From a virus, in the IMG/VR virus record IMGVR_UViG_3300028559_000026, positions 1 through 64,000 of that record: DNA of 64,000 bases. One strand, given 5' to 3'. The notes under the pieces are model-generated. The model was not told the origin of the DNA. It saw only the letters and a list, made by a program, of their open reading frames with translations, and made no database searches. Numbering within the stretch: position 1 is the first letter of the stretch; each line of letters opens with the position of its first letter. This document shows, piece after piece, positions 29,061 to 60,723 of the stretch. Both the position numbers and the translations under genes were made by a program.

Positions 29061-30281
29061 TTACTTTGTTTTAACGGGTGGAGCCACAGCGGAAGTCCTA
29101 GATCCAAAAATCCCACTACGGATACGTGCCAATACAGATCCGGCAGCTTGTGGTTTAGGGATAAGTGGATTAGCGCCAGTAGGACCATCAGCGGGCTTTA
29201 CTGAGCTTTGCGTAGTAGACGCAGGCACCCCATTGGGACGATTGAAGTCAAGGCTCTGTGCAGGCTTCACACTGGAGCTGATCGGAATTGAACGAAAATT
29301 GCCCGCTGGACCCTTAACGCCCGGAAGTGTTTTATTTGGTGCGTTGGCTGGCAGTTCGGTATTCTTTGGCAGTAGACCGAGTAGGGCCTTGAATAGTTCC
29401 TCTACAGGTGCATCTTTGGAATAACCCTTATAACCAGTAAACTCAAACTTAACCAGCTTCTCTGCTTTCTTCTCAGTCTCAGCGCTAGGACCGGTCCAGG
29501 ATGCGTTATTGCCCATTAGACGCTCATACATAATAAGCATGTTTGCGTGCTGACTGGCTGAAACCTCATCCTTGTAGCTAATAGACTTGTTTAGACCATT
29601 AAGGTGATGTGCAGCACCACTAAGCAATTCAGCCTTGGACATCGAAGCGGGCATATGCTTAATGCGGAGTGCTTCAAACTGTTTCTCGGTTTCATTCTTC
29701 ATTACCGAAGTTGATACACTGACACGGGAAGTAGTAGAGGTGGATGCTGCTTTAGGTGGCTTAGCGGTAAGCACCTTAGACTTGGCAGAGAGCTTGGGTG
29801 AACCACCAGCGCCCGGTGGCTTAGCTGCAGGCACTTCAGCCTTTGTGGTTTTGTCTGGTTGCTTCTGTTGCTCTAGTGGCTTTACTTCTTTATGCTCTTG
29901 TGGTAGTGCGGCAATGGGCTGCTGCATCATACCGATACCCAGACCGGTTACGAATGAGCCTACACTCTTCTTAACAGGCTTGCCCGTACCCTTACACATC
30001 TTGCAAAGAGAACTTGACTTTCCTTTGCAACCAGAGCAGGTTTCGGTAAGTGCCATCTCGTCCTTGCCGAGCTTAGGCTTTCCACCACCAGAACCATCGC
30101 CGTTATCTACAGACTTCCCAGCCTTGGGCATACTTTTCAGCCCTTGTCCACCGATATTTTTATAACGATTCTTATCGGAATCATTTGCGTTATTCAGATT
30201 AATCAGGTCTTCGGACTTGAGAATATTAGTCAAACTCTTCTCAAGTCTTGAAAGTTGCTTTTCGATGTTTGTGTAATCCAT
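29061..30281 (-). CDS. putative internal head protein, low complexity, many xxK[SAN] motifs
   Basis: LEKSL, ILKSE, VKKSV, TTKAE, VMKNE, MSKAE, LFKAL; CxxCxG zinc motif; start 30281 by AATCT-N7. Confidence 0.6.
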   Translation of the reverse strand: MDYTNIEKQLSRLEKSLTNILKSEDLINLNNANDSDKNRYKNIGGQGLKSMPKAGKSVDNGDGSGGGKPKLGKDEMALTETCSGCKGKSSSLCKMCKGTGKPVKKSVGSFVTGLGIGMMQQPIAALPQEHKEVKPLEQQKQPDKTTKAEVPAAKPPGAGGSPKLSAKSKVLTAKPPKAASTSTTSRVSVSTSVMKNETEKQFEALRIKHMPASMSKAELLSGAAHHLNGLNKSISYKDEVSASQHANMLIMYERLMGNNASWTGPSAETEKKAEKLVKFEFTGYKGYSKDAPVEELFKALLGLLPKNTELPANAPNKTLPGVKGPAGNFRSIPISSSVKPAQSLDFNRPNGVPASTTQSSVKPADGPTGANPLIPKPQAAGSVLARIRSGIFGSRTSAVAPPVKTK

Positions 30282-30288
30282 AAACACA

Positions 30289-30293
30289 AGATT
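30289..30293 (-). promoter_or_regulatory. AATCT-N7-start late-promoter motif
   Basis: AATCT tgtgttt ATG(30281). Confidence 0.7.
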
Positions 30294-30301
30294 AATTCGG
30301 T

Positions 30302-31312: not shown

Positions 31313-31319
31313 ACAGAAG

Positions 31320-31324
31320 AGATT
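31320..31324 (-). promoter_or_regulatory. AATCT-N7-start late-promoter motif
   Basis: AATCT cttctgt ATG(31312). Confidence 0.7.
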
Positions 31325-32087: not shown

Positions 32088-32110
32088 GAATCACCTAATG
32101 GTCATACTTG

Positions 32111-35100
32111 CTAATCGGATGGCCGAAGCGAGCTGGTGGGATGTCCATAGTCAGCAGCCGCTGTTTCTGGTTGCTTAGACATAATTAAACCGGTCCTACC
32201 CTCTTTCCATCTCTCACCAGTAGGCGTCAACACCTTAAATCGACCAGAAGACTCAATTACAGTGCCTACTGGCAGCTTAATACGTGGTTTCTTTGGTGCA
32301 TGTGGCATGGGTAAGCCAGCCTTCTCTAAATGGCTTGCGTATGCTGCTTTTAGCTTCTTTATCAATTCTGGATCTTTGGCATTAGGGGATAACTCATCCT
32401 TTAAGGTGTAGCCATACCCACCAAACTTCTCATCATACGGTCCTTCTGGTTTATCTACTGCTTTATCGCCAGACAGTACCTTAACTCCACTATGGAAAGC
32501 ATGTGTCATTAAAGACTCATACATGGCAGAGCCCAGGCCCATCTTGCGATGCTCTGGATGAACCTCTGAATGTGCAATCTTTAGTATACCGTTATTAATA
32601 AGACCATTACAAAAACCTATATGCTTGCCATCTTTAATAACATTTGCCTCGACTTCCTTACGATTAATCCATCCTGGGACCGAGGACTCGTGTACTACTA
32701 GGTTGTATCCAGGACTCGCCATGTGTGAATAGTCGTAGCTCTTATTGTCCTTTCCAGCTAGCTGACTAACCAATGGGTCTAGTGCCCCAACAGGAGCATC
32801 CACGGTATCGTCGTTCTCCTCGTTATCCAGAGTAGATGCAAATCTATGACCATTAGCAAAGCTATCTGTATACGACGTAGAATTAGGATGTGACACTGTA
32901 ATGTGTTTATGGTTGAGATCGCCAGTGACATGAGCACTATATCCATATGGCAAGCTATACTGTTTTCCACCATTAGCTGTACCAGTCAGTGTAGGCGTGA
33001 TTAACTTTCCCACCTGATTGTTGGCTAAAGCCATTTTCGTTAATGGCTCAGACTTAGCTGTCGGCTCCAATTCATCCTTCAAGGTGTAATTATATGGTTG
33101 AAACTTGTTGTCGTACGGACCAGTTGGAACCTCATCAGCTCCTGGATATTTTTGTGGTCGGTACTTCATTCCATGCTTACGTGCCAATGCGGCATGGGTA
33201 GCACTAGCCAAAGAGGAGTGAGTGCTACCAATAACTCTTTTATAGCCATTATGATAAGCGTGAGTCATCAACGCTTCATACATAGCAGAACCTAGACCTT
33301 TTTGGCGGTGTTTGGCATCTATACGTGCATAATCAATGGTTAGTGCTCTTTTCTTGTAATGTGGATAAGGCCCCATTTCTACGTTAGCCATTCCGCCTTC
33401 ACAAAAACCCACATAATTACCGTTATGCAGGATATGTGCGGTTACTTTTTTTCCAGTATGATTGACTATCATCTTATACTCTTTGCCATTAGGTGGCAAT
33501 AGGTGTGAATAGTCATAAGCATGACTTTGTTCCAATAGAGGAATGCCGGTGTGCTTACTCACTAAATCATCAACCATAGCAGATACGACATTACCCATAT
33601 TACTCATATGAGCATCACGACCCATTTCCATAGATGACGATTCGCCGCTATACGCAATGTGTTTAAGTGGATAGATATTCTTGTCTTTGAGGGTGGTGTT
33701 GTATTCGTGGTCTGTGGGGCTTTGTCCTGGAGCATGCACTAGGGCGTTAACAAATTTACTACCACTACTTTTGGGTGCAATACTCACAGTGTGGCCGGTA
33801 GGTAACTGATAGTTTTTACCACCATCACTAGAATCTGGTAGTGGTTTGGGCTCAATCGGTTTGCCCGGTGTATTGTCTGCCAAAGCCATCTTTGCTAGTG
33901 GCTCTGATTTAAGGGCATAGCTGTATGGGCCAAACCTTTCATCGTATGGACCAGGAACGGACTCGCCATTTGGATTTACCTTGGGCTTGTAATTCATCCC
34001 ATGTTGCTCAGCTAGTCTTTTGTGTACTGACGACGCCATAGAAGAATGTACATCGCCTTCAACATTCTTGTATCCATTATGAAAAGCATGTGTCATTAAT
34101 GCTTCATACAATGCTTTACCGAGCCCTTGTCCTCGATGATTGGGATTTAACTTGGAATGTCCAATATGCAAAGAACCATTAGTGAGGAATCCGGCACAAA
34201 AGCCGACATGCTCACCATTGCGAAGAATATGCGCTTGTATCTTAATAGGTGATAATTTAGAAAATGAATTAGATTGATGATTTAGTAAAAGAGTATATGA
34301 TTTATCTGGCAGTAGATGTGAGTAGTTGTAACTGGCACGATTTAGATCTTCCGTCTTCATGCCAGTCAACGACTCCACTATGCCATGTACGGCTGTATGC
34401 AATGGACTGCTGGTGGTATTATCACTATCCATGATATTACCCTTACTGTCCTTAAAATACTTTTGGGTGAACACGTTTCCTTTCACTCTATGACGAACCA
34501 GGGCGGTAGCAACATGACTAGTACTTTCATCATGTATTTTCACTTCAGCAGTGTGATTATCTGGAAGTTGAAAGTGTTGAATATTTGCGCTTGGGGAACC
34601 ATCATTGGCTAATTCTGATAAATGCGGATATTGCTCCTCAAACTTCTTCGGGACAACCACTTGACCAGTCTTATTATCAGCCAATGCCATTTTGGACAGG
34701 TCTTCTGACTTGGCTAGATCAGGCTTATTGACTTCGGGCGATAAGCTACGAGCCATATCAATGACGTTTTGGGTCAAACCAATAAGGATTTGATATACCT
34801 CTGGTGACTTCTCTCTAAGCTGCTCTAACTCTGGAGCCTTCATTCTCATAGCCTGAAGGACTTGGGCTATCTTCTGTTTGAGCTGATTGGATTCCTGAAT
34901 AACTCTTTCAGTTTGCTCGGCATCCACCATATCTTGTTTCTGTGCATACTCGTGTAGAGCACTTTCAAAAGTGGGCGATGGGGATGGTTCTGATTTGTCA
35001 AGCTCCTTTAGCTCATTTTTCATGGATGGAGAATAGATCAGTACTCGGCCACCACCACGACCCTCTGCAGTCCTGCATGCAATTTCTGCATCAGCCAATG

Positions 35101-35383
35101 AACTACCTACACCAACAGACATAGGTGTACTAATAACTTGCTGGTATGCTTCTACACGCTCTATTAGTTCGTGTAGATGATTAGCTGGTAGTGTTGCTCT
35201 ACCACCCATACTGTCAATAATGGTAATGCGACCCCCTACAGCTTCCAGCCAAGCCTTCCAGGTATTCTTAGCAGTCTCCATGGATTGACTAGCGTTGTTC
35301 AAACCTTCGGTATCTTCACGCATAGCCATACCAGTCAGCTTCTTAGGAATTTGGTCGTTTGACCATGAAATATAAAGTTGCAT
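32111..35383 (-). CDS. Polyprotein: degenerate mCpol/GGDEF-like domain + three GNAT acetyltransferase repeats
   Basis: GNAT motif A HRGQGLGKALYE / HRQKGLGSAMYE / HRKMGLGSAMYE; each repeat opens with KSE..L.KMALA(D/N)N. Confidence 0.8.
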   Translation of the reverse strand: MQLYISWSNDQIPKKLTGMAMREDTEGLNNASQSMETAKNTWKAWLEAVGGRITIIDSMGGRATLPANHLHELIERVEAYQQVISTPMSVGVGSSLADAEIACRTAEGRGGGRVLIYSPSMKNELKELDKSEPSPSPTFESALHEYAQKQDMVDAEQTERVIQESNQLKQKIAQVLQAMRMKAPELEQLREKSPEVYQILIGLTQNVIDMARSLSPEVNKPDLAKSEDLSKMALADNKTGQVVVPKKFEEQYPHLSELANDGSPSANIQHFQLPDNHTAEVKIHDESTSHVATALVRHRVKGNVFTQKYFKDSKGNIMDSDNTTSSPLHTAVHGIVESLTGMKTEDLNRASYNYSHLLPDKSYTLLLNHQSNSFSKLSPIKIQAHILRNGEHVGFCAGFLTNGSLHIGHSKLNPNHRGQGLGKALYEALMTHAFHNGYKNVEGDVHSSMASSVHKRLAEQHGMNYKPKVNPNGESVPGPYDERFGPYSYALKSEPLAKMALADNTPGKPIEPKPLPDSSDGGKNYQLPTGHTVSIAPKSSGSKFVNALVHAPGQSPTDHEYNTTLKDKNIYPLKHIAYSGESSSMEMGRDAHMSNMGNVVSAMVDDLVSKHTGIPLLEQSHAYDYSHLLPPNGKEYKMIVNHTGKKVTAHILHNGNYVGFCEGGMANVEMGPYPHYKKRALTIDYARIDAKHRQKGLGSAMYEALMTHAYHNGYKRVIGSTHSSLASATHAALARKHGMKYRPQKYPGADEVPTGPYDNKFQPYNYTLKDELEPTAKSEPLTKMALANNQVGKLITPTLTGTANGGKQYSLPYGYSAHVTGDLNHKHITVSHPNSTSYTDSFANGHRFASTLDNEENDDTVDAPVGALDPLVSQLAGKDNKSYDYSHMASPGYNLVVHESSVPGWINRKEVEANVIKDGKHIGFCNGLINNGILKIAHSEVHPEHRKMGLGSAMYESLMTHAFHSGVKVLSGDKAVDKPEGPYDEKFGGYGYTLKDELSPNAKDPELIKKLKAAYASHLEKAGLPMPHAPKKPRIKLPVGTVIESSGRFKVLTPTGERWKEGRTGLIMSKQPETAAADYGHPTSSLRPSD
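32395..34690 (-). repeat. three tandem intragenic GNAT-containing repeats (starts 34690, 33889, 33034)
   Basis: Repeated MALA(D/N)N...Y(D/N)YSH...HVGFC.G...LMTHA(F/Y)H.G...GPYD..F..Y.Y.LK; the third copy has an internal deletion. Confidence 0.85.
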
Positions 35384-35913: not shown

Positions 35914-36357
35914 ATGGATACCCCAATTAAGATCAAGAAACTGCGTGATAATGCTCAAATCCCTCAGTACCAGACCGCTGGTTCTGCTGGTGCCGATCTA
36001 GTGTTTGCACCAGAAAACCGCCATGCCGTTGCAATGCTAGATCCTATGGACCGATTTCTGCTAGAAACAGGTCTGTCAGTAGAGATTCCACCTGGATACG
36101 AAATCCAGATTCGACCGCGTAGTGGTCTAGCTAACAAGTATGGTATTACTGTCCTTAACTCTCCTGGCACTATTGATAGTGATTATCGGGGAGAAATCAA
36201 AGTATTGCTCGTTAACCTGGGCGATACACCAGCCATTATCAATCCTGGTGATAGAATTGCACAAATGGTGGTAGCTATGGTACCACGAGCTATGTTTGTT
36301 GAGACTGAACTAGAGGAGTCGGTAAGGGGCGCTGGGGGATTTGGTAGTACTGGTTAG
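35914..36357 (+). CDS. dut: dUTPase (trimeric)
   Basis: [38 protein letters not shown]. Confidence 0.97.
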
Positions 36358-37070
36358 ACTCTCTTCAAATTCTTCACATTGATATGTCGATATGGATGCT
36401 TCTTTACGTACTCCTGATATTCAGAATCACCCTGGTATCCAGCCATCTGTTGTGGGCTATCGCGGCGTTCACTTACTGCGACGTGCCCCGCCCTGCCACA
36501 CATATCACAGTCGCACTGTTGAACAGTCCAGGTTTTGCTTCCATCAGCGCCCTTAGCTTGGCCAGTAGAAGCCAGGAAATTGGGAGTTAGGCGTACTTTG
36601 GCACCCACAGCAATGGGTGCTGATTTGTCTTGACCTTTAGATAGCTTTACAACATCAACCAATAGCTTGGCTAGTGGTAGAATTTGATTAAGTTCGCTGC
36701 GGAGCAGTGGTAGTTGGTCGGCTGCATGTGCCATAAATTTCACCCTTTTCTGATTAATATCCGGTATTACTTGCTTGACTTCTGGTGGAACAGGTCCTGC
36801 CGGGTTATGTCCTAGAGCCCTCATATAAACATCATACATCATCTTGTGTTCTTTGGATGATGGGTCTGCAACTGCTGATGCTGCAGTAAAAGCCTTCCAG
36901 TGATGTGCTGCAGCTTCAATATAGTTCTTGACCCTGTACGATTTGTATGCCTTCTCTTCGGCGTCCTGGCGTGGCATGTTCTGCCCAAATTCAAGCTCAG
37001 CAGCATGGCGGTCTAGGTGTTCCGCATGTTTCGGGTCTAGTATATCCTTGCCTCTCCATTGGGTAAGCAT
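36354..37070 (-). CDS. putative head cargo protein, modular
   Basis: Shares an AAHH module with 29061..30281 and an LPLA.LL.DV.KLSK helix with 39576..39836. Confidence 0.65.
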
Positions 37071-37852: not shown

Positions 37853-38010
37853 GATAAACAATAGATTGACTTTCTGTGCTATACTTATTTCAATGATTGA
37901 TATTATGATAGCTATGCCATCTATTGTATGGTTGGTGATTATACCAACCGCAATGGCTATATGCTGGTGGGTGGTGGTTAAAACGTCTTCTATGCTCGAA
38001 AGGAAATTTC

Positions 38011-39566: not shown

Positions 39567-39575
39567 TTTGCAATC

Positions 39576-50065: not shown

Positions 50066-50070
50066 AGATT
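50066..50070 (-). promoter_or_regulatory. AATCT-N7-start late-promoter motif
   Basis: AATCT aaggatt ATG(50058). Confidence 0.7.
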
Positions 50071-51046: not shown

Positions 51047-53061
51047 TATTTGCGCTCCGGCAATGCTGCTGTAAATACCTGTTTACGTGTCGGTTGTCCA
51101 TGTCCGCGAATTGCACCTTGCACACTACGCAGTCTGTGTCCCGCTTCTGCAGCCAAATCGGCATCTACACCATTCTTGATGAGGCTGGCTTCTAGGTGTT
51201 TACTGTCTAGCTTGTTAGCCCACTCTATGGCTGCTGGGTGTATTGGGTTTGGTCCAGTATCCACGTTACCCTTGTCGCTTAATTCCCAATAATGCGGTAG
51301 CGACCTAGAGCTGTTTTCAAATAGCATCTCATTATCTATTAGATGTAGTCCATTTTTAGAAAACAGGTAATTATTGGCATGGCGGTCATGTGACCCCATC
51401 ACTGCATCCATAATCCCTAACTTATCCAAATCACCATTACCGGTAAGATTAGAAATTATATTTTTTTGATGCGAAGAGTCGCGAAGTTTTGAATAATCAG
51501 GCCAATGCACATCAGCATGCTCTGCACCATCCACAGCGTTCTGAATAGTGAATCTGTTGTTACCATATATCGACGTAGTGGGATGTGAAAAAGCTGCTGT
51601 GGTTGGTACGTATTGGCCTAGACCAAAGAAGTCTCTAGCCATGTTATGAAAAACAGCCTCGTGTCCATTGCCAGACTCATCATGCTTCATATACGCCAAA
51701 CCACCTTTAGGTGAACGGACCCATCCACTTTGTTCTTCATTGATACCAGCCAAAAAGTGTGATGGTTCAGAAGCACGCCAAGTAGCTGTATCAGCACCAT
51801 GAATCAAAGCTCTTTGCTCTGGTGATGTATTAAGATGTGCTATGCCGTGCTTATCTGCATCCATCTTAGGTTTGAAAGAATTATTCATCCAGACCTCATG
51901 GGCATATGCAACATTTTTGAAATGGGTACCCTCTTTGTTCTTAGGCAGCTTGACTACAGTATTTGGCTCCTTGCTTGGAATAGCTAGGTAATGTGTCTTA
52001 TTATCCTTGACAATGGTGTATTGCTCGTCTTTTGAGTGTGCAATGCCGGGATGGACGGGCTCACCACGAAAATATATAACCTTAGCTGCGGGCTTGGCTT
52101 GATTATCCATATCATTTTTAAGTAGCATTACCACCTGTTCCATCTTGAACAGAGCCATACTGTCAGTCGATGCAACAATGACTGGTACACAGTACAGATG
52201 GTAGGCGAGTAGTGATGCGACCAACCCACATTGCTGCCGGACCTCTTCCAGAATTTGAATGAATTTGCTAGACTGTGTACCAACATCAGCCTTTTCAAGA
52301 GTGTTGATGCCATACTTGTCAACAATATGTGCTATCTGGCCCATTACATTGCCATGCAAAGCAGAACCGGATAGCTGTGCATCGTACAATGGCCGAATTA
52401 GCCTGTCGAGAATGACTGCGGGAAATAGAGCCTGTTCTGGGTCATCCGTTAGCGCTGGATACTTGTTAACCACAAAGTGATATGCCGGGTGGTCTTCCAT
52501 CGACATATCATTAGTGCGAGTAGCTTTGTCATCCAGCTCTTGGATAGAATCATAAACAGGCATATTCCCGACACCCAGCATACATAATGCCAAGAGTGGG
52601 ATATTAGGCCATTCCAGTCCGTCTTCCCTAGCTGTCTGGGATAGTTCTGTTAGCTCATTTTGCTTTTGGTCGATTGTTTTGAGCTTGGCGACATCTGGAA
52701 TGTGTTTTTCATTTCTCGAAAAAACGGTGTTAGCCTTGTAGTAAGCTCTATTCCATTCTGGAAGTTCACCACCATTAGCACCTTTGACAAATACGTCAAT
52801 GTTGATGGGTTGTGCTAGATCAGTGCCAGTAATAGCATCCATCAAATGACCATAGTTTTTAACCTCTGGTATTGAATTGAAATTTGGCATAGCGGCAGCT
52901 ACAAAAGCAGCTTGACGGATAAGATACGGCGAAGACCTACCAAGAGACAGGGCATGGTTAAGTGGAAGCCATTGGGCCATAAATCGACCAAACTGCTTCA
53001 AATCAGCGCTGTTCAATATAGTGTTGTAGGTATCTACATCGTCGATATTGTAATCATACAT
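51046..53061 (-). CDS. degenerate HhH-GPD-like domain + PI3/PI4K-like kinase
   Basis: C-terminal MDAVMGSHDRHANN...LIDNEMLF; N-terminal half aligns with the C-terminal domain of 53061..57347. Confidence 0.75.
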   Translation of the reverse strand: MYDYNIDDVDTYNTILNSADLKQFGRFMAQWLPLNHALSLGRSSPYLIRQAAFVAAAMPNFNSIPEVKNYGHLMDAITGTDLAQPINIDVFVKGANGGELPEWNRAYYKANTVFSRNEKHIPDVAKLKTIDQKQNELTELSQTAREDGLEWPNIPLLALCMLGVGNMPVYDSIQELDDKATRTNDMSMEDHPAYHFVVNKYPALTDDPEQALFPAVILDRLIRPLYDAQLSGSALHGNVMGQIAHIVDKYGINTLEKADVGTQSSKFIQILEEVRQQCGLVASLLAYHLYCVPVIVASTDSMALFKMEQVVMLLKNDMDNQAKPAAKVIYFRGEPVHPGIAHSKDEQYTIVKDNKTHYLAIPSKEPNTVVKLPKNKEGTHFKNVAYAHEVWMNNSFKPKMDADKHGIAHLNTSPEQRALIHGADTATWRASEPSHFLAGINEEQSGWVRSPKGGLAYMKHDESGNGHEAVFHNMARDFFGLGQYVPTTAAFSHPTTSIYGNNRFTIQNAVDGAEHADVHWPDYSKLRDSSHQKNIISNLTGNGDLDKLGIMDAVMGSHDRHANNYLFSKNGLHLIDNEMLFENSSRSLPHYWELSDKGNVDTGPNPIHPAAIEWANKLDSKHLEASLIKNGVDADLAAEAGHRLRSVQGAIRGHGQPTRKQVFTAALPERK

Positions 53062-56000
53062 TACATACTCCCGCGACCTTCTCTAATCCTGGCTTGCTCT
53101 AGTAGCTTAGGAATAGCGTAGCGATAATAAAGAGTCAGGGCTGGCATCTCACCATATTGTCTAACCCAATCGGCATGCTGTTTAGCAGTCTGTGCAGGCA
53201 CTGTGGTATCAATCTCACTCTTCTTTACATTCAGAAAAGGATTGACAGCTTCCCAATACGGTGTGTGGTCTGTATCGGCATTCATACCAAAGGTTTTCAT
53301 TCCTCTGGCTTCCTCATGTGGAACAATACTCATCCAGTGTTTCCAGAATGCTGGAAATACCGCAGATTCATCGTTGTGAAATAAACCTGCGTACTTGGGA
53401 TGATTGCGCATATGCTTAACAGCGTCATGGTGTTTGGCGTAATACCTGTCAATGCCGTTCATAACTTCGGAGTTATTGGGCTCCCACAAAACACTCTTTA
53501 GATGCTCAATAGTATTAGCATCAGCACCTTTCTCTAGGCCGAATAGATGACGGACAAAATGCGTATCGGGCACAACTGAGTTAGCACCACCAAGCATGCC
53601 ATACATATATCTAGCGGTCTTAGGAGCTAATCCAGGCACATCTGGACCGTTATAGGGGCCGATATCTGGCTTGCCTGCAGAAATAGCCCTATCACGCTTA
53701 GCCTTATGCTTCTGGCTATTCTCTTTATGCAGCATCAGCTCTTGGATAGCTGAGCGGGTATCGTCCTTGTGGCGGTTTACTAGGTCTACAAGCGATTGGT
53801 GTAGGCCATGGTATTGGGCCATGTTTTTCAGCTTGTTATTAGCAAGCATAAAACTCTGTACTTGTCCAGCGGTGCGACCAACTTTACCAGTAGTGGCTGA
53901 AACATAAGGCTTGGTACTGCTCTGATATTGGCCGTTAACCAATTTACCAATACGCACGGATGGACCAAGGTTTTCAAAATAAGATCTTCCAGTCACTGGC
54001 AGGGTATCGGGCTTGTCACGGCTAAGCCAATCTGGTCCCACTTCACCTTCAAACTTAGGGCTGGTGGCGTCGATACCCTTATCCTTCATGGAATCAACTA
54101 GATGGCTATTGCTAGTGATAATGCCGTTAGGCAGTAGGAAGTTGTGCTTTACGTGGGCAACTTCAAGATCGTACATTTGTCGTTGGCCCACGGGACGCCA
54201 TCGTACAACGCCCCGACACACCAAATTCCTGGTGTTGGAGATTGGAGAATCCGAGTAAGCCAGATCATGGCACCTTCCTTCATTTTCTTGGTTCTGCTTG
54301 AGAAATTCTCCATCGAGAGACGGATTAGAGTGATATCGCCCCTCCGTAAAGCCTCTTGATTTAGAAGCATGTCCCGGTGCTGGCGATATTGCAGATTTTT
54401 CACAGCCGATTCTTTTTCCGAACCTGAAAAAAAATGCCAAAATCCGTCCACTTCTATCCATATGTTTTCGTGGACTAAATCCACCTGTTTGACAATATCT
54501 CCACATTGAATCAGTCCCGATGTCCAACCCAGTTGCCCTTTTAACTCCTCTTCGATATAGGAATGAGAAGAAGCTGAAGTTTGACCAGCGGCGATAAACT
54601 TTCTTGCAATATTCCCGAATTCCTCTGGATGGGTTTCGCGCCATTCCTGGCCCAGAATCGACAATTGGGTATAGTTGTCCCGAAACTCCTCTGGATGTTC
54701 CAGTCTCCACTTCTTGGCCGCCGCTGTTAATTTCATGGCATGCCATTGGACCATGGCTGGATGCCTCTTTTGCCATTTCAGCATTGCTTGACTGGCCTTC
54801 TTTTGGCGCTCCAGAAACTCGTCTCTCTTTTCCACTTCCCATTTGCGAATCCCCACCATCATCAATTCGGGATTCTGTTCTTTCCATATTTTCTGTGCAG
54901 CATGGGCTTGTTGAAGTAATGCCTTGGATTTCTCGGGATTCTGAACATGCCATTGCTTTGCCGATTCTACACGGGCTGTGGCGCGTATATCCTTGCATGC
55001 CTGACACTCTTTCCGATGCGCCTTGAACAGCACTTCTGTCCGAAATGTTTGACCACAACGGCTGTCCCAGCCCGTCGTCCTTGGTTTTTGTGGCACTAAA
55101 AATCTCCAATCCAGAAGCAATTATTTGGGAAATCGGCACCATTCCTTGGGTGGTCAAAAACTTGTGATTTTGAGAACAAACCACACGATAACCATCCGAA
55201 AACTCGACTTCTATAGCTTCCATAGCGCCGTGGTTGTGGAGTGCTACTACTTCCGTAGTAATAACTTCCCCATTCTGACTTACTCCAAAAACCTTGTCCC
55301 CTGGTAGAAAATTCTTGATTTTCTTGATTGTGTTGTCGCATGTGCTTAAATTTGTGTCCTGATCGAGACAAAACATGATTTCCTGCATCGGAACTGGCGT
55401 GTTTCCAGTTACGCATACATGACCACTTCTTCTCATAAAGAAAAAGGTGTTAGGCACTACTGGACACCACATACCGACCTTACCTACATATCGACGGATA
55501 TGTCTCTTGTCTAGCTTAGCGTGCTTCTGTCGTAGCTTAGTAACCCAAAACTGAGTACCATCATGTGTTATCGAGGATGCGTGACCCAATATAGTGAGAA
55601 AAGCCTGCTCGGCATCAGCGCGTTCTTTGCTCTTGGTCACCATGGTTTTGGTATTATACTTACGGGTATAGGCTGCCCACTCCCCATCTTTATCAACCAC
55701 TGCCATATGTTGATACAGACTCGATATATGCGATACGTCTGGGGTAAAGCCATTATCGTCCAGTCGGGATTTGGCAGTGCGATGAATTAGGTCTGATGGA
55801 TTAATAGTTACAGAGGTTTTCTCCTGTACATTATTCCGACCAGACTTAACCAACCAGCGATGGTCAGGCGTAGTGATGGCATGAAACGACCTTGACTTAA
55901 GCTCGACCAGAGGGCCTTCATAATCCGGGAAGAATCGCAGATCAGTGGGCTTTTGCCATTCCGCCATGCCAGTCTTGGGATTCTTGGTTAAAATCCAATC

Positions 56001-57347
56001 ATCCATAGTTAGATCGAAACCCTTGACCCACCCTCGTTTCGTCAGTGCTTCCGTCTCGGCATCCAGGCAGTTAGGGCTAAGTTGTGAAAACAAAGTACCG
56101 TGCATAACCACTTCTGGCGGCAACTGTCCAGCTTTTAGCAATCCATTGACCTTGGACCAATTGTCCATGGCCTTGTCGTGGAAAGCTGACACCTTGGGAT
56201 CATTCATAATTTTATCGAACGATTCCTTACCCCTTGCATCAGGATCACGCGAAGGGATGTACATAGGGAAAGAGCCTTGTGGCGTGTGTAGTACACCAGT
56301 GCCCTCATCAAAGAAACTCTTAGAGAGGTGCTGATTGGGCGCTACCTCCTTGCCACGAATGGTTAAATTAGTGCTTGGAGTGGCTGCAGGCGCTTCTGTG
56401 GGCCCTGTTTCCTGTGCTGGTGGTGGAGTGACCACAGCTGGCGGCTTCTTGGCCTTGGGCTTCTTTGCGGGCTCAGCTTTCGCTAGTGACTTTTTGACCT
56501 GATAGTCCTCAGCTAGATCGGCGAAGCGATCCAGAAACGAGTCGTCAGCTTCTGGGAGTCGGGACTTGAGAAGTTCACGAAATTCAGCTTTTACAAACGG
56601 TTTGGAGTAATCCCTAATGGTTGCCAGAACCACACCTTTCATACGCTTCATTACATCCTCCCTTACCAATGGGGATGACGCAGGAGCGCTCCCGTTTCCA
56701 GCAGTCAAAGTCTTAGATAGCACAATTGGATCAAAAGCAACTGTTACCGCACCAAAGGTTTTGATAATATCGCCATTTTCGTTTCTGGCTAAAATCCCCT
56801 CAATTAGAGAGGATGATGCGTCTTTCTTTTTATCTGATTGCGGATCGAAGACTACACCAGATACACATGACTTATTACATGGCTTAACAGTACAGGCTAC
56901 TTTGCGGGCGATGGATCGCTCTAGGCGGTTGCCATTCTTCTTAAGAGTAGAGCCCTCGATACTATAACGGCACAGTATTTTCTCATTGTTCTTGACGTGA
57001 TCACGGATTTGTGCTGCTAGTGCGATGGCTCCTGGATGGCCTGAGCCATCATACAGGCGTGACTTAATGTAGATGTATGGCAACTTAACCATATTCCAGT
57101 AGTTACGCTGTCTCTGGTCCGAGGCGTCTTCCTCTTTGAAAATCTTTTTGGCATAAATGATATGGCCTACATTGTCGTTTGCTGACGCACCTTTAGCATC
57201 CTCGCCTCGGTGTTCCCAATTCAGTAGACCATCGCCATTTTCTAAAGATGAAATATCGCATCCTTCAACATCTAGGATTTCACCACTAGAGTCAATCGCT
57301 TCAGACGCTGCAATACCATCAATTATCATTCCCGTTCCCGTCGTCAT
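53061..57347 (-). CDS. Prohead protease fused to an HhH-GPD DNA-glycosylase-like domain, containing two inteins
   Basis: IDGIAASEAIDSSGE...LNWEH...YSIEG...VACT..PCN (prohead protease); PGLAPKTA...VVPDTHFVR (HhH-GPD). Confidence 0.85.
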   Translation of the reverse strand: MTTGTGMIIDGIAASEAIDSSGEILDVEGCDISSLENGDGLLNWEHRGEDAKGASANDNVGHIIYAKKIFKEEDASDQRQRNYWNMVKLPYIYIKSRLYDGSGHPGAIALAAQIRDHVKNNEKILCRYSIEGSTLKKNGNRLERSIARKVACTVKPCNKSCVSGVVFDPQSDKKKDASSSLIEGILARNENGDIIKTFGAVTVAFDPIVLSKTLTAGNGSAPASSPLVREDVMKRMKGVVLATIRDYSKPFVKAEFRELLKSRLPEADDSFLDRFADLAEDYQVKKSLAKAEPAKKPKAKKPPAVVTPPPAQETGPTEAPAATPSTNLTIRGKEVAPNQHLSKSFFDEGTGVLHTPQGSFPMYIPSRDPDARGKESFDKIMNDPKVSAFHDKAMDNWSKVNGLLKAGQLPPEVVMHGTLFSQLSPNCLDAETEALTKRGWVKGFDLTMDDWILTKNPKTGMAEWQKPTDLRFFPDYEGPLVELKSRSFHAITTPDHRWLVKSGRNNVQEKTSVTINPSDLIHRTAKSRLDDNGFTPDVSHISSLYQHMAVVDKDGEWAAYTRKYNTKTMVTKSKERADAEQAFLTILGHASSITHDGTQFWVTKLRQKHAKLDKRHIRRYVGKVGMWCPVVPNTFFFMRRSGHVCVTGNTPVPMQEIMFCLDQDTNLSTCDNTIKKIKNFLPGDKVFGVSQNGEVITTEVVALHNHGAMEAIEVEFSDGYRVVCSQNHKFLTTQGMVPISQIIASGLEIFSATKTKDDGLGQPLWSNISDRSAVQGASERVSGMQGYTRHSPCRIGKAMACSESREIQGITSTSPCCTENMERTESRIDDGGDSQMGSGKERRVSGAPKEGQSSNAEMAKEASSHGPMACHEINSGGQEVETGTSRGVSGQLYPIVDSGPGMARNPSRGIREYCKKVYRRWSNFSFFSFLYRRGVKRATGLDIGTDSMWRYCQTGGFSPRKHMDRSGRILAFFFRFGKRIGCEKSAISPAPGHASKSRGFTEGRYHSNPSLDGEFLKQNQENEGRCHDLAYSDSPISNTRNLVCRGVVRWRPVGQRQMYDLEVAHVKHNFLLPNGIITSNSHLVDSMKDKGIDATSPKFEGEVGPDWLSRDKPDTLPVTGRSYFENLGPSVRIGKLVNGQYQSSTKPYVSATTGKVGRTAGQVQSFMLANNKLKNMAQYHGLHQSLVDLVNRHKDDTRSAIQELMLHKENSQKHKAKRDRAISAGKPDIGPYNGPDVPGLAPKTARYMYGMLGGANSVVPDTHFVRHLFGLEKGADANTIEHLKSVLWEPNNSEVMNGIDRYYAKHHDAVKHMRNHPKYAGLFHNDESAVFPAFWKHWMSIVPHEEARGMKTFGMNADTDHTPYWEAVNPFLNVKKSEIDTTVPAQTAKQHADWVRQYGEMPALTLYYRYAIPKLLEQARIREGRGSM
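54108..55370 (-). mobile_element. Intein 2 (421 aa) with out-of-frame endonuclease
   Basis: Starts CLDQDT, block B CSQNHKFLT, block F MYDLEV, ends HNFLLPNGIITSN, +1 Ser. Confidence 0.9.
54149..55096 (-). CDS. Vsr/DUF559-like endonuclease in the +1 frame inside intein 2
   Basis: SYIEEEL...VDLV...IWIEVDGFWHF...RD..LN......G.I.LIRL; GGAG-7nt-GTG(55096). Confidence 0.82.
   Translation of the reverse strand: MPQKPRTTGWDSRCGQTFRTEVLFKAHRKECQACKDIRATARVESAKQWHVQNPEKSKALLQQAHAAQKIWKEQNPELMMVGIRKWEVEKRDEFLERQKKASQAMLKWQKRHPAMVQWHAMKLTAAAKKWRLEHPEEFRDNYTQLSILGQEWRETHPEEFGNIARKFIAAGQTSASSHSYIEEELKGQLGWTSGLIQCGDIVKQVDLVHENIWIEVDGFWHFFSGSEKESAVKNLQYRQHRDMLLNQEALRRGDITLIRLSMENFSSRTKKMKEGAMIWLTRILQSPTPGIWCVGALYDGVPWANDKCTILKLPT
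55401..56069 (-). mobile_element. Intein 1 (223 aa), LAGLIDADG largely deleted
   Basis: Starts CLDAETEALTKRGW, block B TTPDHRW, ends MWCPVV...VTGN, +1 Thr; remnant TKSKERADAEQAFLTILG. Confidence 0.9.
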
Positions 57348-57354
57348 GTTGAGT

Positions 57355-57359: not shown

Positions 57360-57375
57360 AGGCGGGACAAAGGAT

Positions 57376-57540: not shown

Positions 57541-57843
57541 TTACCATCTCCCACATGCGGTATTGGCAAGTACCAATCGGCCAGCAGCTTCTGCTTCAAG
57601 GTCGATACCAACCTCACCAACTGCTTGTTGCTTTTTAGCTGCCAGAATAGCTGTGATAGCTGCTGTAGCAGTGGTAGAGCAACCACCAGCTTCTTTGCAT
57701 AGACCGTTATTCTTCTTACAGTCCAGTGCAGCTCTATGCACCTTATTCTGCAATCTGTTGACTTGCGAAATGGTACTGACACATCCAGACAGCAATACAC
57801 AAAACACAATAGCTGATAGCAACTTACTGATTAGAGTATTCAT
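57541..57843 (-). CDS. predicted lipoprotein
   Basis: Signal peptide with lipobox LSG-C; AAGGA SD. Confidence 0.7.
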   Translation of the reverse strand: MNTLISKLLSAIVFCVLLSGCVSTISQVNRLQNKVHRAALDCKKNNGLCKEAGGCSTTATAAITAILAAKKQQAVGEVGIDLEAEAAGRLVLANTACGRW

Positions 57844-58573
57844 CGTGGTCCTTTTTAATAAAGGTTACTCGCCCGTCGTCGCCAAAGCCATATCCAGGCA
57901 GGAGCATGACTAATGAACAACGGCAGTATGGATGAAGACCGCTAACGCTAGGTTTATTATCGCCTTTCTTGTGATATCCGTGTTGTAGATCGCTCATTTT
58001 CCAGACAATTGGCTTGCCATCAGGGCGAAGGTGTAATCGACGACATTCTTTGCACATAAACCCATCACGAACAGTGACAAAGTATACTGATGGGTCGTCG
58101 ATGTTCATTGATGAACTAACTTTGACAATGCCGTCCAAAGTACCAGTATTTCGAGCAGTGGTGCTTTCAGTGTCGATAATGCGCTTGACTGCATCAGAAG
58201 TTTTAGCAAAGATTTCCACCAATTGTCCACCTAGCAAGGTATTTGGATTGCCTTCAGGATTGGTCCTAACGAAATTTTCAATCGTTTTGACTACAACAGC
58301 CTTAGCTGTATCCCGTTGTGAATTGATATGATTTTCAGCTATACTCATCACTGAATTTAGCAGTTCTTTATCTGGGGACGTATTGCCCTCGTTTACTGAT
58401 GAGGAAACATACAAATTGGGCAAGGAAAACTGCATACCAACCTGTTTCCTGGTCAGTCTCAGAGAATCGGATTTATCTGCTGGCTTGCCTAAGAACTTAT
58501 CCTTAAGGCGAGAAAACACAGCATCAATACCTTTCTCTATTTTAGAGATTTGGGCTGGTGATAGAACTTTCAT
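57824..58573 (-). CDS. MuF/SPP1 gp7-like head morphogenesis protein
   Basis: RIIDTE, CKEC..L, LHPYCRC; lies between portal and protease. Confidence 0.75.
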   Translation of the reverse strand: MKVLSPAQISKIEKGIDAVFSRLKDKFLGKPADKSDSLRLTRKQVGMQFSLPNLYVSSSVNEGNTSPDKELLNSVMSIAENHINSQRDTAKAVVVKTIENFVRTNPEGNPNTLLGGQLVEIFAKTSDAVKRIIDTESTTARNTGTLDGIVKVSSSMNIDDPSVYFVTVRDGFMCKECRRLHLRPDGKPIVWKMSDLQHGYHKKGDNKPSVSGLHPYCRCSLVMLLPGYGFGDDGRVTFIKKDHDEYSNQ

Positions 58574-60723
58574 AGAGTGTCCAAGGTTTCAGTCACCAGT
58601 TTCTCAAAATCCGTATTTAGACTTTGTATCAGTGACTGAACCATATTTCTTTGTTTAGCCAGCATCTTCTTTTTGGATGGTGGTAATTGTTTTTCACTCT
58701 TAGATAGCAGACCAAGAGCCTGATCAATGGATCGAGTCAAATCGGTTGTCTGCGGCTGCTGGTCGTTTTGTACGGGGTCTTCGTCCCCCGCATTTGTAGC
58801 CTGTGCTGCGCCTTGCGGAGCTTGGTCCCCTGGCTGGCCTTGGGAAGCCTCTGCAGGCTGTGCCTGACCACCCCCTTGGGGTTGCCCTTGCTGCTGTCCT
58901 GGAGCGCCTTGCTGTGCCTGCTGCATTTGTTGCTGCTGCATTTGCTGCTGTGCTTGCATAGCTTGCTGTTGCTGGAAAAAGAATGGATCGCGTACGTAAT
59001 TCCATTTCGGGTCTTTGGAGGCATTAGCCATACCAAAGAAGGTTTCCAAAATAACACCTACAGGCACGTACTTATCCATAATGGCCTGCAACTGCTGATT
59101 TAAGGGGAAGTCGCCGCCGACCATATTAGGCAAGGGCTTCTTTTCCACACGACCCAAGATTTCGTTGTAGGTCATATGGACGGCCATATCTTGCTGGATA
59201 CGGACACTTTCTTTTTCTGCAGTTTCTGCATCCAAACCGACCAGCTTTAGCACACAAATCTTGCTTAGCTCGTAGTCGATAAGGGGCATGATGTCAGTAT
59301 TGAGAAAGTCCTCAAACTGCTTGACTAGGGGACGTATACCTAAGTCACGATGCGCCTCAAGGCGGTACTCGTTATTGCTTTCAGACAGTGCTTGGTTGTT
59401 GGTACCCTTGCTGAGATAGGCCCACCCAGGCAATTCTTCAGGACTCATCTGGAATGCGGACAGAATCGCTCTGGCGTTCATATCTGATAGATACTGAAAC
59501 TCCATATCCCGAGTACCAGAATCAATGGCCTGCCAAGCGACTTCATCTTCACTACCAACACCAAAGACAGGCATTCTCCACGAATTCTGGACAGAGTTAA
59601 TGGATGCCTGAAACTGTTGCTTAATGTGAGACACCATATGTTCGTCGGCATCATCACTCTTAATAACAATCATGCCACGGGTGGCGCGACCAGATTGAAA
59701 ATATAGTTTATTGTGCGACGTGATATTGATGTGTGTCGTCACCTGAGTCAGCATTGTATCCAGTGGGGTAACTGGATATCCATTCATCTCCCAATCCAAA
59801 ACTGGATAGAAATTCTTTACCAATAACTCATCATCAGTGAATGCCTGACGGGGAGTGCCTTCAATAACCTGAATCCACTGATACTCATCATCAACAAAAC
59901 GGTCGGGATTTAGCTTTTCATTACGAACCTGCTCAAGCAAGCTCTTGCTTGATTCACGGATACTTTGTGCTGCGTTACCATGTGGTACACTCTTATAGAT
60001 AGTTCCAGCATCAACTGGTCTAAAACCATAAAATTCCCACTCGCCAGTTTGCTCATCTAGGTTGCGCACTACTTCTACAGCAATACGACCCACAACCAGT
60101 GCGTTTCGGGTAGTCTGATACAGAAATTCATTAAAGGACAGGCGTGCTTCTTTATCCCACCCCTCCTGAATACCACAGTTATTAACCAGCTTAACTGCCT
60201 TACTGATACGCTTCTGGATACCTTCTTTCTCCTCGGTAGTCATATTTTGGAGATGTGACTTGGTGGGCTCAATCACAAAACCTGGACTAAAACGGTCATC
60301 TCGTGGTCTACCAAACACCGACATTTGGTTAGAACGTGCCTGTACAATACAAGCCACCAGCTCATCTTGAATGGAGATACGCTTCAATACGCTGTCAGGC
60401 AGTAGGCGGGTCTTTTGCTTATAAATACCGTGATACTGGTCCCCATTGGTGGGGTCTACTTCAAAAGCCAGCCGCTCGATGGAATTGGATTCACCATCGA
60501 GCTTACGATTAAGTGCTTGTGCTTTGGATAGCTTTACAGTCTTGTCAGTTTCATCCTTAAACATATCCGATTCATCAAGCCTATCAACAAAACTTACCTT
60601 AACGCTTTTAGGCTTAGGTTTTACAGCAGATAGTGTGGTAATGGCCTGCTGAGCTTTGGATAGCTCTGAACGAGTATCATCCAAACTCTTCTTTAAGGTT
60701 TCAAATTCTTTGTTCTTACGCAT
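58570..60723 (-). CDS. Portal protein
   Basis: PVDAGTI, NGYPVTPL, YFQSG...RG, NSWRMPV, DMEFQ, AFQMSPEE, G.RPL; Gln-rich tail. Confidence 0.9.
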   Translation of the reverse strand: MRKNKEFETLKKSLDDTRSELSKAQQAITTLSAVKPKPKSVKVSFVDRLDESDMFKDETDKTVKLSKAQALNRKLDGESNSIERLAFEVDPTNGDQYHGIYKQKTRLLPDSVLKRISIQDELVACIVQARSNQMSVFGRPRDDRFSPGFVIEPTKSHLQNMTTEEKEGIQKRISKAVKLVNNCGIQEGWDKEARLSFNEFLYQTTRNALVVGRIAVEVVRNLDEQTGEWEFYGFRPVDAGTIYKSVPHGNAAQSIRESSKSLLEQVRNEKLNPDRFVDDEYQWIQVIEGTPRQAFTDDELLVKNFYPVLDWEMNGYPVTPLDTMLTQVTTHINITSHNKLYFQSGRATRGMIVIKSDDADEHMVSHIKQQFQASINSVQNSWRMPVFGVGSEDEVAWQAIDSGTRDMEFQYLSDMNARAILSAFQMSPEELPGWAYLSKGTNNQALSESNNEYRLEAHRDLGIRPLVKQFEDFLNTDIMPLIDYELSKICVLKLVGLDAETAEKESVRIQQDMAVHMTYNEILGRVEKKPLPNMVGGDFPLNQQLQAIMDKYVPVGVILETFFGMANASKDPKWNYVRDPFFFQQQQAMQAQQQMQQQQMQQAQQGAPGQQQGQPQGGGQAQPAEASQGQPGDQAPQGAAQATNAGDEDPVQNDQQPQTTDLTRSIDQALGLLSKSEKQLPPSKKKMLAKQRNMVQSLIQSLNTDFEKLVTETLDTL

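Follow-up and report, generated by a model that had tools for sequence, protein, structure and literature searches.

In phage T4, the assemblin-fold protease gp21 cuts the capsid, scaffold-core, and internal proteins (IPI-III and Alt) at one short motif within the prohead; Alt is an ADP-ribosyltransferase that is packaged and trimmed and that enters the host along with the injected DNA (PMC9026906; PMC5512222). The proteases of phiKZ (gp175) and SPN3US (gp245) likewise cut many head proteins at a defined motif, with long propeptides cut several times and the protease removing its own C-terminal part, and a large protein mass in these heads is ejected (PMC10052503; PMC5694885; PMC7411985). Precedents for protease-processed, ejected head proteins are described in PMC10052503 and PMC5512222. 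The latter (Iyer et al., 2017) also treats the polyvalent proteins of phages and conjugative elements, in which several unrelated enzyme domains (ART-PolyVal, GNAT, kinase, Nudix, and GGDEF) share one phage protein encoded near packaging genes; it predicts that such proteins are packaged, that a peptidase processes them, and that they are delivered when a cell is invaded. It further summarises the P1 Dar antirestriction system, in which the head takes up large enzymes and accessory proteins, some of them after proteolytic processing, and these protect incoming DNA. HK97 removes a 103-residue N-terminal domain (PMC10275583).

The DNA analyzed here (the window) is a 64,000-nucleotide stretch of IMG/VR virus record IMGVR_UViG_3300028559_000026 and represents the structural half of an uncultured phage related to Myxococcus phage Mx1. 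The best explanation of the locus as a whole, to which we give a probability of roughly 0.6, is a prohead-protease code with lysine at P1 that also directs the processing of polyvalent enzyme cargo, a reading that places it within the theme of T4 Alt and the internal proteins, phiKZ and SPN3US, and polyvalent proteins; we found no published description of this system in the literature. T4 cuts after Glu (L/I-x-E), whereas P1 here would be Lys; T4 cargo is single-domain with a short N-terminal targeting peptide and the T4 protease lacks an enzyme fusion, unlike the protease of the window's relatives, while here the cargo would be multi-domain chains with internal sites, among which a search for a shared N-terminal targeting peptide found none, a point against the reading. 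The phiKZ and SPN3US motifs also end in Glu (A-x-E or S/A/G-x-E) and their cuts mostly remove N-terminal propeptides, where here they would separate enzyme domains; those genomes are larger (240-280 kb) and unrelated. Relative to polyvalent proteins as described in PMC5512222, the protease here is N-terminal and its fusion is common in the clade, the kinases are PI3K/HipA-like rather than Ser/Thr/Tyr-type, and a sequence code at the joints does not figure in that paper's passages on such proteins; P1 Dar differs in its head type, in processing attributed to other peptidases, and in having no known shared punctuating motif. SPO1 gp3.2 and HK97 gp4 (Pfam Peptidase_S78) belong to the same protease family by profile comparison, and SPO1 resembles the window in its homologous capsid protein with a ...K↓ALEAG N-terminal site (the arrow marks the cut), its Lys-Ser-rich scaffold, and a copy of the capsid arm in its protease. 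However, SPO1 gp3.2 (256 aa) has no fused enzyme domain, and the annotation of the 8-kb SPO1 head region examined lists no enzyme polyprotein. HK97 gp4 is likewise not known to have a fused enzyme domain, and the cut that removes the 103-residue domain in HK97 follows a Lys.

A first-pass annotation of this DNA had proposed that one short motif occurs in the head proteins and at enzyme-domain boundaries, and that the enzymes are packaged as polyproteins, cut into single domains, and injected. All the strings it quoted are present in translated minus-strand open reading frames, and the motif is a genuine, head-module-specific signal. In the head set (27 minus-strand proteins from position 29,061 on, 10,608 aa), the strict motif [LVMI].K[SAN]E was counted 20 times, where shuffling each protein gave an expectation of 1.89 +/- 1.28; across 200 shuffles the count never exceeded 7. 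It is absent from the remaining 34 proteins (9,356 aa; 3..29030, encoded by the sheath, tube, baseplate, and plus-strand genes), where 1.26 would be expected, so that the head-versus-tail comparison the annotation had suggested confines the enrichment to the head set; this comparison region has PHROG matches to a baseplate wedge and a baseplate protein, and its sheath protein is 42-50% identical to the sheath of relatives. The looser K[SAN]E occurs 30 times in the head set (8.6 expected) and once elsewhere (5.1 expected). Control patterns in the head set were flat: E[SAN]K (4 versus 8.7 expected), K[TGQ]E (3 versus 7.2), Arg at P1 (2 versus 1.3), and K.[SAN]E (10 versus 8.3). Because 15 distinct DNA 9-mers underlie the 20 sites, the signal lies at the protein level rather than the DNA level. 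About two of the 20 are expected by chance, and those lacking conservation in relatives (portal K12 and K260, K13/K22 of the protein at 31323, K62 of that at 39231, terminase K360, and K183, K716, and K873 of the 989-aa protein at 41403) are, judged by sequence conservation, probably non-functional.

The motif was defined post hoc, after the data had been seen, which does not apply to its replication in other genomes. Head modules of Mx1 and four complete relatives (40-63% GC) hold 5-9 times the expected number of strict sites (Mx1, 15 versus 1.6; G005, 14 versus 2.8; G004, 17 versus 2.2; G001, 9 versus 1.7; G002, 5 versus 0.9), a count reached in 0 of 200 shuffles for each, and the motif is at expectation in the remainder of each genome. 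An unbiased scan of all tripeptides gives KSE the top rank for the Mx1 (17 versus 2.6 expected, with one in the other 19,328 aa) and G004 (18 versus 4.3) head modules and places it within the top seven in the window, G001, and G002; in G005 it falls outside the 14 most over-represented tripeptides, which counts against the cut-site reading. Among pooled K[SAN]E sites, P3 is L, V, M, or I in 80 of 122 head sites, about three times the share at non-head sites, and Ser occupies P1' in 58% of head sites versus 25% of non-head sites. Homologs show an excess as well: 109 polyvalent homologs hold 132 strict sites (17.8 expected) and 120 protease-fusion homologs hold 90 (16.8 expected).

The capsid, scaffold, portal, and protease proteins have the motif in common, as had been claimed; these and all genes below lie on the minus strand. 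The major capsid protein (46246..47658; 60% identical to that of Mx1 and 24-28% to SPO1-type capsid proteins) has a predicted propeptide cut, LIK↓AL, at 47620-47634, within a K↓A[LMW][EQ]AG sequence kept in 6/6 genomes; SPO1 (ALNK↓ALEAG) and Twortvirinae capsid N-termini carry a homologous ...K↓A... site. Upstream of the capsid gene, the scaffold-like protein (47673..48446) contains AMK↓SE, LKK↓SL, and LNK↓AE, its counterparts in Mx1 and G005 have 4-5 sites each, and the SPO1 scaffold has 12 Lys-Ser dipeptides versus 3.1 expected. The portal protein (58570..60723; Pfam Phage_portal, E 1.2e-10) has a C-terminal LSK↓SE site (58693-58707) kept in 5/5 genomes having the region, and the capsid and portal sites are kept across genomes of 40-63% GC. 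A MuF-like head protein (57824..58573; weak Phage_Mu_F match, E 0.0086), whose gene adjoins the portal gene in all relatives, lacks the motif.

The 1428-aa protease fusion protein (53061..57347) consists of a protease domain (aa 1-187, 56787-57347), a linker, and a C-terminal domain that is interrupted by intein sequence (Pfam Intein_splicing, aa 672-1080) and has no assigned function. The protease is an assemblin-fold, divergent enzyme of the HK97 gp4/SPO1 gp3.2 (S78) type: with an AF2 model of aa 1-200 (pLDDT 84.8), the top Foldseek matches are herpesvirus assemblins (probability 0.99), with T4 gp21 at rank 30, hhalign pairs it with SPO1 gp3.2 (98%, E 2.8e-13), and H46, H104, and S129 are invariant, although no match to the Pfam S78 model was reached directly. 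The predicted self-release site at the end of the domain, LAR↓NE (56778..56792), has Arg at P1, which counts against a P1-lysine code; K[SANG][ED] falls in the two alignment columns at this conserved position in 39 of the 102 homologs aligned, typically as xLK↓SE or LKR↓SE. The linker contains a capsid-arm-like segment (56652..56726; L-S-K↓T-L-T-A-G...A-P...L, family consensus LxK↓ALxAG....APS.L), of which the SPO1 protease also carries a look-alike, and beyond it, in a Pro/Lys-rich stretch, LAK↓AE (56472..56486). Capsid residues 8-36 match the protease reading frames of relatives (E 8e-7, 4e-6, and 3.5e-4); BLASTP within the window itself did not detect this likeness. Sites in the 102 homologs cluster at positions equivalent to residues 253, 261, 286, and 328 of this protein. 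Among the 120 metagenomic homologs with the best scores, at least 42 carry the protease N-terminally, fused to a GGDEF (18) or PI3_PI4_kinase (24) domain, the latter PI3K/HipA-like.

Domain matches, AF2 linkers, and homologs likewise bear out the placement of the motif at predicted domain boundaries of multi-enzyme proteins. The 1090-aa protein (32111..35383) has an mCpol-like domain (Pfam mCpol, 9.9e-6, aa 8-117) followed by three GNAT units (Acetyltransf_1, 7.9e-27 in three stretches), and its motifs fall between them: LDK↓SE (34988-35002), LAK↓SE..LSK↓MALA (34679-34717), ALK↓SE.LAK↓MALA (33878-33916), and TAK↓SE.LTK↓MALA (33023-33061); a joint of the form Y.Y.LK↓[SG]E recurs in Mx1 and G005. 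The 989-aa polyvalent protein (41403..44372) comprises an N-terminal peptide, a Nudix domain (1.8e-18), a small alpha/beta domain, HEAT-like repeats, and a PI3K-like kinase (PI3_PI4_kinase, 1.8e-6). Its three conserved sites, LGK↓SE (44283-44297), LVK↓NE (43608-43622), and VQK↓SE...LAK↓SV (42675-42707), coincide with the three low-confidence linkers (aa 1-33, 245-253, and 554-562) of its AF2 model (pLDDT 81.6), K564 is invariant in 30/30 sequences, and across 29 homologs sites occur at 16.3 per 1000 aa in linkers versus 0.33 in folded parts (50-fold). Only 4/30 homologs have the N-terminal extension with its site, which counts against the cargo reading. HEAT repeats and kinase jointly look like a single unit of PI3K/PIKK type, so separating them would bring no obvious benefit, and the earlier phrase "cut into single domains" may be too strong for this pair.

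Other candidate cargo carries the motif less uniformly. A 423-aa PI3K/HipA-like kinase protein (40135..41406; PI3_PI4_kinase, 2.1e-8) has LIK↓NE (41173-41187) ahead of the kinase part, where the Mx1 counterpart has VMK↓SE, and a 325-aa cyclase-like (GGDEF/mCpol-type) protein (50069..51046), whose Mx1 homolog is annotated "nucleotide cyclase", has LHK↓AE (50552-50566). A 671-aa protein (51046..53061) contains the third of the PI3K-like kinase cores, a divergent one (PI3_PI4_kinase, E 0.01, under the cutoff) with BLAST matches to the other two kinase proteins; its best match in Mx1 and G001 is the protease reading frame (24-26% identity), and it lacks the strict motif, which counts against cargo processing. 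Among the enzyme identities, those of the three GNATs with mCpol, the Nudix domain, and three PI3K/HipA-like kinase domains hold; the cyclase at 50069-51046 depends on one weak mCpol match (E 0.008, below cutoff), and the "glycosylase-like" label gained no support, Pfam and PDB sequence searches returning nothing and a language-model atlas pointing to DUF7178. The original interpretation thus holds for the motif, its head specificity, its boundary positions, and most enzyme identities.

Because the motif occurs both in head proteins and at enzyme-domain joints, the enzymes probably enter the capsid as joined chains and are separated inside it. We propose that the protease would cut after Lys (sometimes Arg) in hydrophobic-x-K↓[S/A/N, sometimes M]-E, removing an 11-residue N-terminal peptide from the capsid protein, fragmenting the scaffold, trimming the portal's C-terminal tail, and freeing itself from its own C-terminal extension. 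Multi-enzyme late proteins, encoded among head and neck genes and carrying the same sites in flexible joints (mCpol with three GNATs; Nudix, HEAT-like repeats, and PI3K-like kinase; further kinase-like proteins; a cyclase-like protein), would be taken into the prohead, in some cases attached to the protease, and be cut into domain-sized pieces too large to exit the shell, which would leave with the DNA at infection and act on host signalling or defence. Cleavage at the motif sites is likely and packaging of the enzymes probable; ejection into the host is a tentative step, somewhat short of even odds. Without ejection, the motif would still be a cut site but the enzymes would have their targets in the producing cell or in the head during assembly (packaged DNA or head proteins, for instance), or be core or scaffold components that are cleared or inert. 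That is unlikely on present evidence, although ejection is here an extrapolation and not an observation, the scaffold has the same sites and is presumably degraded, the protease-fused domain has no assigned function, and the small, motif-rich low-complexity proteins at 29061 and 37070 resemble core or scaffold more than enzymes. By analogy with T4, site-bounded fragments of 25-50 kDa would hardly exit a closed shell as scaffold peptides do; ART-PolyVal (present in the Mx1 polyvalent homolog), GNAT, kinase, Nudix, and GGDEF are the set predicted to be delivered at invasion (PMC5512222); and ejection is the fate of those internal head proteins of T4 and SPN3US known to be processed (PMC10052503).

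Cutting could alternatively be restricted to the capsid, scaffold, portal, and protease, the motif in multi-enzyme proteins being an uncut linker, a docking peptide (one that recruits the protein to the prohead by binding protease or scaffold, for example), or a joint conserved as a remnant of domain-cassette shuffling. The sites do bound shuffled modules (the three GNAT units and the variable domain orders of the 109 homologs), and a substrate-like peptide could tether, the protease itself carrying a capsid-arm look-alike. We nonetheless regard this as quite improbable: the diversity of the 9-mers argues against DNA recombination joints, sites that come in tandem pairs spaced by 4-10 residues, an arrangement the scaffold also shows, favour cutting over docking, and sites exposed in low-confidence linkers would be expected to be cut by a protease active in the same compartment. 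Head proteins are also somewhat richer in Lys (7.0% versus 5.2%) and Glu, and a by-product of composition or of post hoc motif choice might be suspected, but composition-keeping shuffles never reach the observed count, mirrored and substituted controls are flat, site positions are conserved, and the signal reappears in the unbiased tripeptide scan and in five further genomes; with a negligible chance of being correct, this origin was rejected.

Several smaller proteins share the module. The low-complexity, Lys/Pro-rich 408-aa protein with a CxxC pair (29061..30287) has five K[SAN]E, three of them strict, the highest density per length among window proteins, and BLAST found no homolog in five relatives. 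Within 36354..39836, the protein at 37070-37861 has three strict sites, that at 39576-39836 has LSK↓AE, and that at 36354-37070 has LSK↓GQ, while a conserved structural protein (38425-39255; phrog_1004, virion structural protein) has no site; the proteins at 36354 and 39576 share the peptide LPLA[KR]LL.DV.KLSK (E 3e-6).

All of the lysine-containing strings that the first-pass annotation had quoted from head-region proteins are found in the window, and the motif behind them is enriched over shuffled controls. The strict form, [LVMI].K[SAN]E, with a proposed cut after the lysine (P1; a slash marks the cut below), has 20 occurrences among the 27 proteins encoded on the minus strand from 29061 onward, against 1.9 +/- 1.3 expected, a count attained in 0 of 200 per-protein shuffles; the 34 remaining window proteins have 0 against 1.26 expected. 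Without the hydrophobic P3 residue, K[SAN]E is observed 30 times in the head set (8.6 expected) and once elsewhere in the window (5.1 expected), a depletion that we take as chance since it is absent in relatives. Control patterns in the window are flat, whether reversed, with arginine in place of lysine at P1, with different residues at P1', or shifted in register. The same excess could arise at the DNA level, from a repeated nucleotide element or from overlap with another motif, but the 20 strict sites are encoded by 15 different 9-mers, which places the constraint at the protein, not the DNA, and rules out such an origin. The flanks of pooled K[SAN]E sites carry a preference that lies outside the rule by which the sites were selected: in head modules L, V, M, or I stands at P3 in 80 of 122 sites and serine at P1' in 58%, while outside head modules the hydrophobic P3 share is about one third of the head share and serine falls to 25%.

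Because the motif was picked after the data had been seen, we sought replication in further genomes, namely 100 kb of Myxococcus phage Mx1 and four complete relatives (GC 40%, 49%, 58%, and 63%), with simple longest-ORF sets as gene sets. The strict motif is observed 15 (Mx1), 14 (G005), 17 (G004), 9 (G001), and 5 (G002) times in the head modules of these five genomes against 1.6, 2.8, 2.2, 1.7, and 0.9 expected; in each of them 0 of 200 shuffles attain the head count, and the remainder of each genome is at expectation. In an unbiased scan of all tripeptides, KSE leads the ranking for the Mx1 (17 against 2.6) and G004 (18 against 4.3) head modules, lies within the top seven for those of the window, G001, and G002, and falls outside the top 14 in G005. 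The tripeptide and head-versus-rest counts use greedy ORF sets, which leaves those of G001 and G002 somewhat noisy. Greedy calling dropped real genes in the GC-rich relatives, and the ortholog search was therefore made against all ORFs. Individual sites are also conserved: the capsid site K/A[LMW][EQ]AG is kept in six of six genomes, and the C-terminal portal site LSK/[SA]E in all five genomes that have the region. Several other window sites are unconserved and are probably chance matches, in line with the approximately two expected. The observation of the first-pass annotation is thus confirmed, and its interpretation as a whole, that enzymes are packaged as polyproteins, cut into single domains in the prohead, and injected to act on the host, is partly supported.

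The window covers the initial 64 kb of an IMG/VR virus fragment of 76.5 kb with an estimated completeness of about 47%. The capsid protein shares 60% identity with its Mx1 counterpart and 24-28% with SPO1-type (Herelleviridae) capsids, and the head genes of Mx1 (169.6 kb) come in the same order. The minus-strand order in the window is terminase, a 320-aa protein, portal, a MuF-like protein, and a 1428-aa protease fusion protein, followed by a 671-aa kinase-like protein, a cyclase-like protein, scaffold, and capsid, and then by neck proteins interspersed with large multi-enzyme proteins and by sheath and tube; the remainder consists of baseplate and plus-strand genes. In both the window and Mx1 the protease gene therefore sits between the portal gene and the scaffold and capsid genes. 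Two nucleotide-metabolism genes, at 35914-36357 (+) and 38011-38433 (+), lie on the plus strand amid head genes of the minus strand; one encodes a dUTPase with 52% identity to that of Mx1, and the other has by eye the look of a dCMP-deaminase-type zinc enzyme (HAE...PCxxC).

Residues 1-170 of the protease fusion protein (53061-57347 (-)) are predicted to adopt the assemblin / T4 gp21 fold (AF2, pLDDT 84.8), and the top Foldseek matches of the model are all herpesvirus proteases (probability up to 0.99, TM about 0.42), with T4 gp21 at rank 30. Residues 1-200 gave no direct match to Peptidase_S78 or any other Pfam family, even at E <= 10; the sole library match of the domain is PHROG 1028, 'head maturation protease' (E 0.0015), and the protease profile, when searched against PDB sequences, gave a chance match only. 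The link to known head proteases runs through SPO1 gp3.2, to which a profile of 24 protease sequences aligns by hhalign (98%, E 2.8e-13, 176 columns) and which itself clears the Peptidase_S78 cutoff (23.7 bits against 21). H46, H104, and S129, the candidate catalytic residues, are invariant across the 24 sequences and, in the sequence alignment, fall on NFDH and SVEG of SPO1. A predicted cut site right after the protease domain is conserved in 39 of 102 homologs, its window counterpart being LAR/NE, and additional site clusters follow in the linker.

The protease domain is common to more than 400 metagenomic proteins, and among the best 120 of these (limited to homologs of at most 784 aa) it is followed C-terminally by GGDEF in 18 and by a PI3K/HipA-like kinase in 24. 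The separate 671-aa kinase-like protein of the window has its best match in Mx1 and G001 inside the long protease ORF. The protease must be inside the prohead to work, and no other indirect argument for the entry of enzymes into the prohead is as strong as these fusions. The C-terminal domain had been labeled 'glycosylase-like', a label that found no support and that we did not adopt: Pfam searches with the C-terminal extein and with a 783-aa homolog, P0001, were empty, as was the PDB sequence search, and the language-model atlas suggested DUF7178. The fusion gene also contains intein sequence (Pfam Intein_splicing at residues 672-1080; window 54000-56100 (-)), the middle of which is low-complexity Ser/Gly/Arg in the gene's frame and is overlain in another frame by a 323-aa ORF at 54149-55120 (-). 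P0001 is 68% identical across the protease region, and its length fits that of the window protein once the intein sequence is taken out.

A look-alike of the capsid N-terminal arm, with the predicted cut site at its start, follows the protease domain at 56652-56726 (-) in the window, at about 2380-2500 in SPO1 (L104), and at G001:C1:47057-47143. BLASTP gives no alignment between the window capsid N-terminus and the window's own protease linker, where the look-alike is too diverged; it is clear only in relatives and SPO1, and is present in the relatives' protease ORFs and in the consensus of the family. This copy of the capsid arm in the head protease is conserved from SPO1 through Mx1-like phages, and may serve either for docking or for self-processing. 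SPO1 shares further features with the window system, including a capsid start, ...ALNK/ALEAG, and a scaffold with 12 Lys-Ser dipeptides against 3.1 expected. Capsids of A511 and Twort are processed at Lys-Ser; our literature search found no account of such processing for A511, Twort, or SPO1 capsids.

The large proteins between the neck genes show where the sites lie relative to folded domains. The 1090-aa protein (32111-35383 (-)) combines an mCpol-like domain with three GNAT units whose borders coincide with K/SE..L.K/MALA joints, and its joint Y.Y.LK/[SG]E is found again in Mx1 and G005. The mCpol domain (minimal CRISPR polymerase, Cas10-palm-like) opens the chain at residues 8-117 (E 9.9e-6), and mCpol is also seen in a separate Mx1 protein (L002 33963-35369) at E 4.6e-4, below the Pfam cutoff. 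The 989-aa protein encoded from 41403 is modeled (30 homologs, pLDDT 81.6) as Nudix, a small domain, HEAT-like repeats, and kinase, and its sites K28/SE, K253/NE, and K558/SE fall in the low-confidence segments 1-33, 245-253, and 554-562 (AF2). In 29 homologs, linkers hold 16.3 sites per 1000 aa and folded parts 0.33, and K564 (L.K/[AS][VI]) is present in all 30 of the 30 aligned sequences. By Foldseek, the Nudix part matches NUDT15 and RppH, and the repeat and kinase part (residues 254-989; 41403-43610 (-)) matches PI3K p110 and the PIKKs mTOR and ATR with probability 1.0 and low global TM. The latter matches raise the possibility that the repeats and kinase are one working unit and may act as such even when cut apart. 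Their arrangement is a eukaryote-like lipid/protein kinase layout within a phage head-region protein.

Iyer et al. predicted that 'polyvalent proteins' are packaged and processed, and the domain repertoire described there is much like that of the window system (PMC5512222). As in this class, at least two unrelated catalytic domains share a polypeptide here, mCpol with three GNAT units in one chain and Nudix with a PI3K-like kinase in another, and the Mx1 homolog joins GNAT, ART-PolyVal, and Nudix. The signature domain PF18760 (ART-PolyVal) is present in the Mx1 homolog (E 2.8e-16) and several metagenomic homologs, and absent from the window's own proteins. Across 109 polyvalent homologs, which combine Nudix, kinase, GNAT, ART-PolyVal, histidine phosphatase, ParB-like, and other domains, there are 132 strict sites against 17.8 expected. 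According to the same paper an assemblin-like peptidase is rare in polyvalent proteins and always C-terminal, whereas here and in the best 120 of more than 400 homologs it is N-terminal; the retrieved passages describe no sequence code at domain joints (PMC5512222). In T4 and phiKZ/SPN3US, internal head proteins that are ejected are processed at a protease motif, with cuts after glutamate (PMC10052503). Four features set the present system apart from known ones: the proposed P1-lysine code, an N-terminal protease heading fusions, the capsid-arm look-alike, and the emphasis on signaling enzymes.

A further reading, to which we give roughly a one-in-four chance, is that Mx1-like phages use the head protease as a loading vehicle. 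The arm copy after the protease domain would dock the fusion chain within the shell; the P1-lysine code would then free fused and co-packaged GGDEF and mCpol cyclases, PI3K-like kinases, Nudix, GNAT, and ART enzymes; and these would reach the host along with the DNA, blunting nucleotide-signal immunity ahead of phage gene expression. Mx1 resists an M. xanthus CBASS / type III-B island that blocks Mx4, for which the authors propose unknown countermeasures (PMC11506125), and we speculate that cargo delivery could be the reason for this escape. If the proposed system is confirmed, a lysine-based cutting rule would join the glutamate-based rules of T4- and phiKZ-type head proteases, sequence alone would suffice to predict cargo across a widespread group of environmental phages, and nucleotide cyclases, lipid-kinase-like kinases, Nudix hydrolases, and acetyltransferases would be delivered as ready-made proteins. 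Mx1-like phages form a large clade (roughly 120-180 kb; 64 IMG/VR loci and the more than 400 metagenomic protease homologs). Cuts after lysine would be invisible to ordinary trypsin-based virion proteomics, a possible reason for their having escaped notice even in SPO1-type phages; our literature search found no paper or proteomic data on the virion contents of Mx1-like phages. Each step is testable, as both the phage Mx1 and M. xanthus DK1050, on which it grows, can be cultured and manipulated genetically.

The cargo candidates are encoded with the head genes and bear the motif common to capsid and scaffold. N-terminal sites occur at K28 of the 41403 protein, K24 of the 39576 protein, and K17 and K24 of the 29061 protein, with the extension of the 41403 protein present in only 4 of 30 homologs, and no N-terminal peptide shared across the motif-bearing proteins was found. 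Two of the small proteins have in common a 33-residue peptide, LPLA[KR]LL.DV.KLSK/... (E 3e-6), at residues 122-154 of 36354-37070 (-) and residues 1-33 of 39576-39836 (-); this peptide, which has the motif at its end, is a candidate for a targeting or propeptide element shared by such proteins. The proteins at 29061-30287, 36354-37070, 37070-37861, and 39576-39836 (-) each have a CxxC...CxxC-type, zinc-ribbon-like cysteine cluster, in each case within low-complexity Lys/Pro/Ala-rich sequence. In Mx1, the protein encoded upstream of the sheath gene (L002 37603-39282) has four repeats of K/M[ED].P..KE...NGGP.P, which suggests that methionine at P1' is also accepted, as in the K/MALA joints of the window.
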